A stretch of DNA of 64,000 nt from the NCBI GenBank assembly GCA_021801125.1, contig JAJYYI010000017.1, positions 33,095-97,094 of the forward strand. The letters run 5' to 3'. The stretch comes from Deltaproteobacteria bacterium (GTDB lineage Bacteria; Desulfobacterota; Binatia; Binatales; Binataceae). Below are positions 36,165 to 38,741 of this stretch, in pieces (within the stretch, counting starts at the first letter, position 1; each line of letters opens with the position of its first letter). The notes under the pieces are model-generated. The model saw nothing but the letters and a program-made list of their open reading frames with translations. It made no database searches and had not been told where the DNA came from. A program made the translations under genes and the position numbers.

Positions 36165-38741
36165 ATGACCTGCCCGTCTTGCGGTCAGTCCAACGCTGAG
36201 GACCGAAGGTTCTGCTCCGACTGCGGCGCGCTACTAAACCTGGATTGCCAGTCTTGCGGATTTCATAACCAGCCGACTGCGCGCTTTTGTGGTTCCTGCG
36301 GCGTGTCGCTGGGCAATCCGTCGGGCGCCGTTGCCACACCTGCCGCGAAGCCGAAGATGCCGGAATCGTTCGTCGGCGGGCGCTATCGCATCCTCAGATT
36401 GCTCGGCGAAGGGGGCAGCAAGACCGTCTATCTCGCACGCGACGTCAACCTTGATCGCGAAGTTGCCTTCGCTCTGATCCGAACCCACGGCCTCGACGAG
36501 GCCGGGCGCGAGCGCATCAATCGAGAGGCGCGCGCGATGGGCCGTCTGGGAGACCATCCGAATATCGTCAACGTTTACGACGTCGGCGAGGAGCAAGGCC
36601 AGCCTTACATCGTGAGCCAATATATGGCTGGGGGCTCGGTCGAGAACCTGCTTGAGCGTTCGCCGAATCACTACCTATCGCTGGCCGACGCCGTCCGCAT
36701 CGCGGGCGAGGTAGCGCACGGATTGGAGCACGCTCACGCTCAGGGAATTGTCCATCGCGACATAAAGCCCGGCAACGTTTGGCTTACGCGAGACGGAAAG
36801 GCCAAGCTGGGCGACTTCGGCCTGGCTCTGGCGCGAGACCTTTCGCGCCTCACGGCGACCGGAATCATGGTTGGGACCGTGGCCTATATCTCGCCGGAGC
36901 AGGTGCAAGGGACGCCCCCGGAACCGCGCAGCGATCTCTATTCGCTGGGCGCCATGTTGTACGAGCTGCTCACGGGCCATCCGCCCTTTAAGGGGCAAGA
37001 TCTGCTTAGCGCGCTTTCGCAGCATCTGAACGCGACCGTCGAGCCGCCCTCGCGTGAGCGCCCCGAAGTGCCCAAACCGCTGGACGAACTCGTGCTTAGC
37101 CTGCTCGCGAAAAAGCCCGAGGACCGGCCGGCGAGCGCAACCGTCGTCCACACGCGACTCAAGGCGATCGGCGAGAATCTCGGCAGCGGGATCGATCAAC
37201 TGGCTAAGTCGGTAGCGATAGAGCGGCCCAACATCAGCATGCACGCTTCCCGCGACGGCACGGTCAGCATCTTGTTTTCGGACATCGAAAATTCCACCAA
37301 GATCTACGACCGGCTCGGCGACTTGCGCGCGCAGGGGCTGTTGCGCATCCACAACTCCATCATCCGCGAAAAAATCGCGGCCCATCGCGGACGCGAAGTC
37401 AAGTCGATGGGCGACGGCTTCATGGTGGTGTTTGCCAGCGCCCGCCGCGCGCTGCAATGCGCGATGGAGATTCAACGCGCCTTCGCCGTCTACAGCGATG
37501 AGCATCCGCAGCAACCTTTGCGCGTGCGCATCGGCCTGCACGTCGGCGAGGCGATTAAAGAGTCGGATGATTTCTTCGGCACCGCGGTGATTATGGCGGC
37601 GCGCGTGGGCAGTCAGGCTGCGGGGGCCGAGATTTTGGTGTCGTCGATCTTCAAAGAAGTGGTCGCGCCGGCCGGCGACGTGCGCTTCGATGAAGGGCGC
37701 GAGGTTGCCCTAAAGGGCCTCTCGGGCGTGCATAAAGTCTATCGGGCCCTGTGGAACGGCGAGGATAAACCTTGCGCGTCGTGCGGTGAACCGGCGCCCC
37801 ATCACGCACCGACTTGCCCGCACGCAACGCTGCCGCTGCGCGCCGGATCCGGTTCTACCTCGGAAATTGAAGTAACCAGCAACCCGACGGTTTCAAGCTC
37901 ACGGCAGCCGAGCGCGGGATTCCCGCTAAAGCCTGCCCTCGCCGGCGCGGCGCTGCTCGCGGTTGCGACCCTGGGTTACGGCGCGTTCCGTTACCAACAA
38001 AGCGTCGAACGCCGCACCGCGATGCTGGAAAAGCTGGAGCATGACAGGCTCTTGGAAGAAGCTCAAAAAGCCGACGCCGAAAAACGCACCGAGGCCGAAA
38101 AGCTGAAGCAGCAGGCGCTGGCGGCGGAAGCCGAACGCCAAAAGCAAGAGCAGCTCAAGCAGGAGCAAGTTAAAGCGGCTGCACAGCAACAGGAGACGGA
38201 AAGACAGAGACTGGCCGCCGCGCAGGCGGCGAAGGAGCGCGAAATCGAGCGTCAAAAACAGGCCGCAAACGAGGCCGCGAAGCAACAGGAACTGGAACGT
38301 CAGAAGCAGGCTGCCGCCGAAGCGGTGCGCAAGGAGCAGCAGCGCCAGCTTGCCCTGCAGCAGGCTGAGCGGGCCAAGAAGCGCGCTCAACAAGCCGCAA
38401 AGCAGGCTGCGCAAAACAAAAAGCAGTTGGCCGCCGTTGCCAAGCCGACCGCAAAGGCGCCGACCTCGGACGCCGAAACGGAGGAATCACGGCCCACTCG
38501 TCACAAGGGATATAGCATCCAGATCGAGGACGCGATGGACCGTGCAGCCGCCGAGTTGATCGCGTCACGCCTGAAAAAGCTCGGCTACAACTCCTATCTC
38601 GTTACGGCCGATGACGACGAGGACTCCGGCGACACGGCGCGCTGGCTAGTCAAAGTCGGCCCCTACAAGACCGAGGACGAAGCGCTGGCGGCCGAGCAAG
38701 AGCTACGCGGGCGTTATCGCAGCGCGTATCCCCACGATTAG
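36165..38741 (+). CDS. Membrane-anchored Ser/Thr protein kinase fused to a class-III adenylyl/guanylyl cyclase domain, with N-terminal double zinc ribbon, periplasmic coiled coil and C-terminal SPOR domain
   Basis: Two CxxC...CxxC ribbons at the N-terminus. Hanks kinase motifs (VAFALIRTHG ... HRDIKPGNVWL ... DFG ... SPEQ). Cyclase homology domain (FSDIENSTKIY ... KSMGDGFMVVF ... RIGLHVGEAI ... AARVGSQA). TM segment PALAGAALLAVATLGYGAF. A ~180-aa Gln/Glu/Lys/Ala-rich coiled coil. SPOR-like tail (KGYSIQIEDAMDRAAAELIASRLKKLGYNSYLV ...). Confidence 0.85.
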   Translation: MTCPSCGQSNAEDRRFCSDCGALLNLDCQSCGFHNQPTARFCGSCGVSLGNPSGAVATPAAKPKMPESFVGGRYRILRLLGEGGSKTVYLARDVNLDREVAFALIRTHGLDEAGRERINREARAMGRLGDHPNIVNVYDVGEEQGQPYIVSQYMAGGSVENLLERSPNHYLSLADAVRIAGEVAHGLEHAHAQGIVHRDIKPGNVWLTRDGKAKLGDFGLALARDLSRLTATGIMVGTVAYISPEQVQGTPPEPRSDLYSLGAMLYELLTGHPPFKGQDLLSALSQHLNATVEPPSRERPEVPKPLDELVLSLLAKKPEDRPASATVVHTRLKAIGENLGSGIDQLAKSVAIERPNISMHASRDGTVSILFSDIENSTKIYDRLGDLRAQGLLRIHNSIIREKIAAHRGREVKSMGDGFMVVFASARRALQCAMEIQRAFAVYSDEHPQQPLRVRIGLHVGEAIKESDDFFGTAVIMAARVGSQAAGAEILVSSIFKEVVAPAGDVRFDEGREVALKGLSGVHKVYRALWNGEDKPCASCGEPAPHHAPTCPHATLPLRAGSGSTSEIEVTSNPTVSSSRQPSAGFPLKPALAGAALLAVATLGYGAFRYQQSVERRTAMLEKLEHDRLLEEAQKADAEKRTEAEKLKQQALAAEAERQKQEQLKQEQVKAAAQQQETERQRLAAAQAAKEREIERQKQAANEAAKQQELERQKQAAAEAVRKEQQRQLALQQAERAKKRAQQAAKQAAQNKKQLAAVAKPTAKAPTSDAETEESRPTRHKGYSIQIEDAMDRAAAELIASRLKKLGYNSYLVTADDDEDSGDTARWLVKVGPYKTEDEALAAEQELRGRYRSAYPHD

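Follow-up and report, generated by a model that had tools for sequence, protein, structure and literature searches.

A 64,000-nucleotide stretch of contig JAJYYI010000017.1 (assembly GCA_021801125.1, an uncultured bacterium of the Binataceae, Binatota), referred to below as the window, was analyzed around a single gene that encodes a predicted membrane-anchored protein with a kinase and a nucleotide cyclase domain. The open reading frame (ORF) of this gene occupies positions 36165..38741 of the forward strand, starts with ATG and specifies 858 amino acids plus a stop codon, exactly as in the original prediction made for this region. Judged against the curated Pfam gathering cut-offs (GA), all four proposed domains score above threshold: DZR (residues 3-46; 41.3 bits, GA 27.3), Pkinase (PF00069; residues 74-329; 173.6 bits, GA 31.7), Guanylate_cyc (PF00211; residues 361-522; 71.1 bits, GA 21.9) and SPOR (PF05036; residues 780-852; 31.0 bits, GA 21.0, E = 3.2e-7). 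Combined with the hydropathy profile, these matches bear out the originally proposed order of zinc ribbons, kinase, cyclase, transmembrane helix and SPOR domain. The most interesting point, absent from that prediction, is the apparent WNK-type relocation of the kinase lysine, which extends across the whole family of related proteins.

The N-terminal double zinc ribbon (36165..36302, +) is formed by Cys 3, 6, 17 and 20 and by Cys 28, 31, 42 and 45. A protein of 100% identity (P0001) is encoded on a JGI metagenome contig of 459.6 kb, where the public gene call begins 46 residues later, yields 812 amino acids and thereby loses both ribbons. The 858-residue form with the ATG at 36165 is right and the JGI start too late, because the zinc ribbons are kept in homologues; a Shine-Dalgarno-like GGAG located 6 nt upstream of the ATG (36155..36158, +) also supports the longer form. 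The gene looks monocistronic. A scan for sigma-70-type promoters gave no match, and the terminator-like matches lie on the opposite strand or within neighboring genes and are uninformative. A third cysteine motif follows the cyclase (37773..37823, +) and, by comparison with homologues, appears to be a degenerate zinc ribbon of the form CxxC...CPH (C537, C540, C551 and H553). In this protein it reads CASC...CPHA, with the fourth cysteine lost and His553 nearby, whereas relatives show CPxC...CPxC at the same place or have no such motif at all.

Membrane anchor, spacer and SPOR-like domain

A single transmembrane helix is predicted at residues 590-608 (37932..37988, +) from hydropathy and from the predicted structure. 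Its Kyte-Doolittle mean over 19 residues is 1.58, a borderline value, and the protein contains no other candidate segment. The hydrophobic segment is kept in position among relatives and is helical in the AlphaFold2 model. Flanking charges of +2 on both sides do not decide its orientation. However, 589 residues of ATP-using domains, with no signal peptide, precede this sole hydrophobic segment, so that the only sensible topology is N-in/C-out, with the zinc ribbons, kinase and cyclase predicted to be cytoplasmic and the spacer and SPOR-like domain outside. This agrees with the cytoplasmic and periplasmic sides assigned originally.

The predicted periplasmic part begins with a charged helical spacer (residues 609-751; 37989..38417, +), recognized by its composition and in the AlphaFold2 model, where the membrane helix runs on as a long helix spanning residues 590-650 and 657-751. 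Residues 616-779 are rich in Ala (24%), Gln (18%), Glu (15%), Lys (12%) and Arg (10%), with Leu, Ile, Val, Met and Phe together contributing only 10%. No heptad frame is enriched, and the helical part comprises about 140 residues, which would span about 20 nm. The coiled coil of about 180 residues that had been proposed here is thus not sustained, and the segment is more suggestive of a single charged helix or of a TolA/FtsN-type spacer than of a coiled coil. Its length varies widely within the clade of the studied protein, while members of the other SPOR-type clade carry Pro/Ser/Ala-rich linkers instead; from these comparisons, what is conserved is a spacer and not a domain. A search for tandem DNA repeats from which the spacer could have arisen returned just a trivial 12-nt two-copy match. 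The helix is followed by a low-confidence flexible segment (residues 752-779; 38418..38501, +), with pLDDT below 50 for residues 750-780.

The C-terminal SPOR-like domain (residues 780-858; 38502..38738, +) has a predicted beta-alpha-beta-beta-alpha order, and its assignment to SPOR in the original prediction holds at the Pfam threshold. When a profile of 13 family members was compared with solved structures, the best match was CwlC (E = 4.7e-6), followed by FtsN (E = 1e-3) and, more weakly, by DedD, RlpA and DamX. Gln786 (YSIQIE) aligns with the glutamine of CwlC YKVQIG, which corresponds to the beta1 position of FtsN Q251, RlpA Q270 and DamX Q351. This glutamine is among the few side chains critical for the binding of denuded glycans and is needed for septal localization, while most other contacts between SPOR domains and glycans are made through the main chain (PMC6895207). 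The likeness to known SPOR proteins extends beyond the fold and profile similarity and the beta1 glutamine, since the succession of a transmembrane helix, a long low-complexity spacer and a SPOR domain is FtsN-like. The region from the membrane helix to the SPOR domain weakly resembles whole FtsN (TIGR02223; residues 592-848, E = 8e-5), although its score of 22.3 bits falls below the cut-off of 107.65. In contrast to the studied protein, FtsN, DedD, DamX, RlpA and CwlC have little or no cytoplasmic enzymatic part, and the SPOR domain described here differs from theirs in being acidic and in lacking a predicted beta4 strand.

The homology of the C-terminal domain to SPOR is therefore established by profile comparison, but its specificity for denuded glycans is not. 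The tethering to the division septum that had been proposed finds support in the SPOR match and in the retained Gln786. On the other hand, it relies on the roles that SPOR domains play elsewhere, and the domain is divergent: both structure models contain three strands and no beta4, compared to the four-stranded SPOR sheet; the alignment to the Pfam profile reaches only position 70 of 76; the domain carries a net charge of -5; and the beta1 glutamine is replaced by Glu, Asp or Val in many SPOR-type relatives. These features leave room for the strongest of the competing explanations, in which the domain would serve as a general envelope or peptidoglycan anchor, or would bind another ligand, rather than read denuded glycans specifically at the septum. 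In that case many paralogous envelope sensors would exist that differ by an interchangeable outer module, and this protein would be just another of them, with no special link to cytokinesis. We consider this explanation rather unlikely. The Pfam match lies above threshold, the family profile matches five different solved SPOR domains, and the protein itself keeps Gln786; moreover, the dominance of main-chain beta-sheet contacts means that side-chain divergence is tolerated (PMC6895207).

Catalytic residues of the kinase and cyclase

The Hanks-type Ser/Thr kinase domain (residues 74-329; 36384..37151, +) is PknB/StkP-like. The solved sequences nearest to it are StkP (E = 6e-58), PknB and PknA, and its predicted model superimposes on PknB with a TM-score of 0.91 (normalized by the target). 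However, it is not the plain Hanks-type kinase of the original prediction, which had missed two substitutions. The canonical beta3 (VAIK) lysine is absent, its position being occupied by Ala103 (codon 36471..36473, +; REVAFALIR), which aligns with the VAVK lysine of StkP. Instead, a lysine, Lys86 (codon 36420..36422, +), is found at the third-glycine position of the G-loop, GEGGSKTVY, and is proposed to be the relocated catalytic lysine. A BLASTP alignment with human WNK1, the sequence of which was verified against PDB entries, pairs Lys86 with K233 and Ala103 with C250, the stretch between the two positions being free of gaps.

Both substitutions are characteristic of the family. A G-loop lysine occurs in every readable protein homologue (112 of the 120 best homologues) and in all 79 kinase ORFs from 78 loci of species-representative genomes. 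At the beta3 position Ala or Ser is found in all readable sequences among the 120 best homologues, apart from three ambiguous motif matches, and in 76 of 76 readable genomic kinase ORFs. The remaining catalytic residues are retained: the alphaC glutamate E121, H197-R198-D199, N204, D217-F218-G219 and the activation-loop T230 are invariant in 43 relatives, and in the APE-like motif, SPE at 243-245, only the serine varies.

The G-loop lysine of WNK kinases is needed for catalysis and contacts ATP in the manner of PKA K72, and WNK has been described as the sole functional family of eukaryote-type protein kinases without K72, the beta3 lysine (PMC1821047). The kinase described here shares with WNK the lysine at the third glycine of the G-loop, a small residue at the beta3 position and the retained alphaC glutamate; it differs in having DFG where WNK has DLG and gives no sign of chloride or osmotic regulation. 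Common descent with eukaryotic WNK kinases is not supported, as among solved kinases the domain matches StkP, PknB and PknA best, and by sequence comparison the likeness is convergent and not orthologous, because identity to WNK1 is 27% against approximately 35% to PknB. Seven families without the VAIK lysine appear in a 2025 atlas of bacterial Ser/Thr kinases, none of them described with a G-loop lysine signature.

The loss of the canonical lysine raises the question of a pseudokinase, which would bind ATP at most and would regulate or dimerize the cyclase, leaving cAMP as the sole output. Apart from Ala103 itself, an argument in its favor comes from animal receptor guanylyl cyclases of the GC-A/NPR-A type, single-pass proteins in which a kinase-like domain is fused to a class III cyclase and activity depends on dimerization. 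The studied protein departs from that layout in several respects: its sensor is at the C-terminus, in the opposite order, its kinase catalytic residues are kept, its predicted substrate is ATP and not GTP, and its origin is independent. For bacterial kinases, loss of the VAIK lysine makes a pseudokinase by sequence definition; however, the known bacterial pseudokinase families mostly lack HRD and/or DFG as well (bioRxiv 10.1101/2025.01.12.632604), whereas here the HRD aspartate, Asn204, the DFG aspartate, the alphaC glutamate and the activation-loop threonine are invariant across the family, and the position of Lys86 is a lysine in all 191 sequences with a readable G-loop. Such invariance is, as far as alignments can tell, the signature of selection for catalysis and not of a decaying pseudokinase, and WNK shows that the identical arrangement is catalytically competent (PMC1821047). 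A relocated catalytic lysine is thus more likely than a pseudokinase, because HRD, DFG and the alphaC glutamate are all retained, and we regard the non-catalytic alternative as unlikely.

The catalytic domain of the class III nucleotidyl cyclase (residues 361-528; 37245..37748, +) was recognized by the Pfam match and by its similarity to Ma1120 of Mycobacterium avium, its closest solved relative (E = 1e-43). Full-length Ma1120, including the N-terminal segment, is matched with 163 bits (E = 6e-47), and the cyclase model superimposes on Ma1120 with a TM-score of 0.89 (normalized by the target) and 43% identity in the structural alignment. The motifs FSDIENS (371-377) and MGDGF (415-419) contain the two metal-binding aspartates, D373 and D417, both aligned to Ma1120. 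By alignment and spacing, K413 and D469 correspond to the ATP-specifying pair K101 and D157 of Ma1120, and R480 corresponds to its transition-state arginine R168; K517 is also present in the domain. Five of these residues (D373, D417, K413, D469 and R480) show no variation among 43 relatives. In contrast, the position of the transition-state asparagine is occupied by Ile476, which aligns with A164 of Ma1120, and across the family this position is mostly Ile or Val, with Asn in a minority, while the other catalytic residues are unchanged.

A conserved helix, GIDQLAKSVAIERPNI, precedes the cyclase (residues 342-357; 37188..37235, +) and ranks among the best conserved regions of the protein. Predicted to be helical, it aligns with the segment at the N-terminus of full-length Ma1120; A347, E353, R354, P355 and N356 are invariant among SPOR-type relatives. 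In monomeric, autoinhibited Ma1120 the N-terminal helix reportedly blocks the dimer interface. Thus, the features shared with Ma1120 (PDB entries 4WP3 and 5D15) comprise the metal aspartate pair, the Lys/Asp pair, the transition-state arginine, a residue other than Asn at the asparagine position and the N-terminal helical segment. The differences are that Ma1120 is a small, stand-alone, soluble enzyme with Ala at the position of Ile476, whereas the cyclase studied here sits between a kinase and a membrane anchor.

The suggestion that the cyclase may be active survives this comparison in the main. The metal aspartates, the purine-specifying K413/D469 pair and R480 are kept, but the transition-state asparagine is not, and its loss would fit in part a degenerate, non-catalytic cyclase-homology domain with a role in dimerization or regulation only. 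The asparagine is indeed essential in mammalian cyclases (cited in PMC4215837). However, the other five of the six canonical positions are invariant, the family keeps them together with mostly Ile or Val and sometimes Asn at position 476, and the nearest characterized homologue is likewise devoid of the asparagine: in Ma1120 this position is Ala, yet the enzyme is an active adenylyl cyclase, and the A164N substitution drastically lowers its activity (PMC4215837). A crystal structure of Ma1120 also shows bound ATP aligned for catalysis (PMC7384201). A degenerate domain is therefore quite improbable in our estimate. Taken at the level of sequence, the cyclase is most likely a Ma1120-type class III adenylyl cyclase producing cAMP and is probably catalytically active, with ATP predicted as the substrate because of the Lys/Asp pair K413/D469.

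A different pattern was noted in five family members of approximately 1460-1490 residues with AAA and TPR modules (P0083, P0089, P0090, P0091 and P0099). In these proteins the substrate-specifying lysine is replaced by Glu (E..GDGF) and the first metal site reads DMEGF. The replacement of Lys by Glu hints at a preference of this sub-branch for GTP or another nucleotide.

Family distribution and genomic surroundings

The original prediction had described kinase-cyclase fusions as uncommon, but for the present lineage this is incorrect. Pkinase and Guanylate_cyc occur together in each of the 120 best homologues listed, and 398 relatives were counted among species-representative genomes in a scan with just two peptide patterns. 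An NCBI model, TIGR03903, already describes a fusion of this kind; it aligns with residues 98-522 of the studied protein, covering the same kinds of kinase and cyclase domains (model positions 4-457 of 1267), at 151.2 bits against a cut-off of 705.75. The closest relatives are labeled at source as Candidatus Binataceae or Binatia, phylum Binatota. According to the record titles, the genomic loci belong mostly to Binatia-type bins and to Chloroflexota/Dehalococcoidia, with single bins of Myxococcales, Acidobacteriota, Actinomycetota and others.

A core of DZR, WNK-like kinase and cyclase recurs in the family in combination with different modules, namely SPOR, DUF4019 (PF13211), NHL, Sel1 or AAA plus TPR. 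The short membrane forms end in SPOR, DUF4019, NHL or Sel1 repeats, and the soluble forms of about 1470 residues have AAA_16 and TPR inserted between kinase and cyclase; some family members have no cyclase. The kinase-AAA_16-TPR-cyclase proteins, found in Chloroflexota and Binatia, share with the studied protein the N-terminal DZR and the WNK-like lysine. In contrast to these forms and to the TOMM fusion of TIGR03903, the studied protein contains no AAA or TPR module, has no TOMM genes nearby and is membrane-anchored with a predicted periplasmic domain.

Among the 120 best clusters, about 30 are SPOR-terminated, and each of these comes from Binatia-type metagenome bins. Full-length SPOR-type matches were found at the genomic loci L006 and L010-L012, while L002 matches in two pieces. 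In a neighbor-joining tree of kinase plus cyclase cores, which were cut out by motif-anchored trimming and for which no support values were computed, the SPOR-type proteins fall into two clades, which are paraphyletic with respect to the DUF4019 and Sel1 types. This topology suggests either an old SPOR ending that was later swapped out or two separate gains. Fusions of a kinase with a cyclase are therefore already known and are common, whereas the SPOR-terminated variant is undescribed in the searchable literature. That literature, which for the kinases included the 2025 atlas and a review on Ser/Thr kinases and pseudokinases of bacteria, yielded no account of a SPOR-kinase-cyclase protein or of bacterial WNK-like kinases, which is no proof of novelty, and no SPOR-tethered kinase or cyclase equivalent to the PASTA kinases turned up in it.

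Paralogues are numerous in some Dehalococcoidia. Two loci on contig CAZLDI010000015.1 of a Dehalococcoidia bin (L032 and L041) each contain three ORFs for WNK-like kinases of 392-1534 residues. Four of these six ORFs have cyclase motifs as well. Up to six paralogues thus occur on one 90-kb contig, and several Dehalococcoidia bins give five or more loci each.

The 64-kb window is an ordinary chromosomal region with genes for F-ATPase, DnaX, FtsH, TilS, CcmF, CoA-transferases, a P450 and a NUDIX protein. Neither tblastn nor Pfam revealed paralogues or partner genes within it. Downstream genes are common only to close relatives (70-85% identity) and encode a lipoprotein, a P450, a NUDIX protein, a low-molecular-weight phosphatase, a short-chain dehydrogenase/reductase and ArsC; the neighborhood of a more distant SPOR-type orthologue is unrelated. 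The nearest of these genes (38907..39989, -) is convergent and encodes a predicted lipoprotein of 360 amino acids with a signal peptide ending in LASC and with no Pfam or PADLOC match. Its position is kept in close relatives but not beside the distant SPOR-type orthologue. A role in anti-phage defense of the PD-T4-6, MADS or BREX PglW kind is very improbable, since the matches to the PADLOC PD-T4-6, mad6 and PglW models and to the NCBIfam MAD6 and PglW models are all confined to the generic kinase domain (approximately residues 67-340), those to NCBIfam MAD6 and PglW lie far under the curated cut-offs, and the neighbors are housekeeping and metabolic genes with no methyltransferase, BREX or other defense genes nearby.

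Three further observations concern neighboring genes. At the locus of P0013, the distant SPOR-type orthologue is followed about 1.4 kb downstream by a gene with LysM and Peptidase_M23 domains (L083, 9817..10572, -), as in amidase activators of the NlpD/EnvC type; only one such case was seen, and it may be a coincidence. The window also encodes a 1482-residue fusion (1174..5622, -) of NAD_binding_4/Sterile (fatty-acyl reductase), AMP-binding, PP-binding and Acyltransferase domains, a domain set that we presume to be reminiscent of the myxobacterial ether-lipid enzyme ElbD. Finally, a protein of about 625-663 residues with a Thaumatin domain (PF00314; 29590..31581, -), a family that is mainly eukaryotic, is encoded next to the F-ATPase operon and a gene for a bactofilin (28341..28967, -).

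Proposed function and relation to known systems

Taking these results together, we propose a single-pass inner-membrane protein with the double zinc ribbon, a PknB-like kinase with the WNK-type Lys86 and a Ma1120-type cyclase inside the cell, and a SPOR-like domain held outside on a spacer of about 20 nm, which would be activated by clustering. The probability that we assign to this reading is about 0.55. The domain architecture, residue conservation, fold similarity and family distribution support it directly. From them we infer the topology, both enzyme activities, the binding to peptidoglycan and the activation by clustering.

In the proposed mechanism, the SPOR-like domain would bind the denuded glycan strands made by amidases at the division site and would thereby concentrate the protein there. 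Crowding could then promote homodimerization of the cyclase and displace the conserved helix of the Ma1120 type in front of it; a class III cyclase needs a homodimer because its active sites lie at the dimer interface. The same crowding may allow trans-autophosphorylation of the kinase activation loop (Thr230/Thr232). The output would be a local synthesis of cAMP and Ser/Thr phosphorylation, both tied to cell-wall remodeling, and the protein would represent a diderm counterpart of the PASTA kinases PknB and StkP with an added cyclic-nucleotide output.

Several observations argue against this proposal. The hydropathy of the membrane segment is borderline and its flanking charges are equal; the SPOR-like domain is divergent in strand number, extent of the Pfam match, net charge and beta1 glutamine; and Ile476 takes the place of the transition-state asparagine. 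The structure was predicted for a monomer, with an unreliable inter-domain arrangement at full length (pTM 0.44). At the loci compared, no conserved neighbor was found that would hint at a substrate, a phosphatase, an FHA protein, a cyclic-nucleotide receptor or a division gene. Furthermore, activity, localization and peptidoglycan binding are, for the whole family, predictions from sequences and models.

The closest functional parallel to the proposed clustering-activated protein is provided by the PASTA kinases PknB, StkP and Stk1, in which a cytoplasmic Hanks kinase is likewise joined through one transmembrane helix to an extracytoplasmic module that binds peptidoglycan and directs the protein to the division site. 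However, the studied protein has a SPOR-like domain in place of PASTA repeats, has no beta3 lysine, carries a cyclase before the anchor and belongs to a diderm candidate phylum. Consistent with these differences, the PASTA kinase model NF033483 is matched by the kinase part alone (model positions 3-271 of 563), at 299.3 bits against a cut-off of 450.

A broader proposal, which we put forward tentatively and hold to be doubtful in its full extent, is that a multi-phylum family related to PknB independently evolved an active kinase of the WNK type, and that its Binataceae branch came to tether this kinase, together with an active cyclase without the asparagine, through SPOR to amidase-processed septal peptidoglycan, so that cytokinesis or wall remodeling would be reported by both phosphorylation and cAMP.

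If a bacterial family indeed shifted its lysine in the WNK manner while keeping the other catalytic residues intact, it would be an independent replay of the WNK innovation, and bacterial WNK-like kinases would offer a simpler system for asking what the relocation of the lysine is for. Such proteins would be misfiled under sequence rules that treat the absence of the VAIK lysine as proof of a pseudokinase. The constant two-enzyme core with its swapped outer module would also provide natural chimeras for studies of clustering switches in class III cyclases and Hanks kinases. PASTA kinases link the status of the cell wall to phosphorylation in Gram-positive bacteria; if the SPOR-like domain truly reads denuded glycans, then in a diderm candidate phylum the processing of peptidoglycan at the division site would be linked to Ser/Thr phosphorylation as well as to cAMP.

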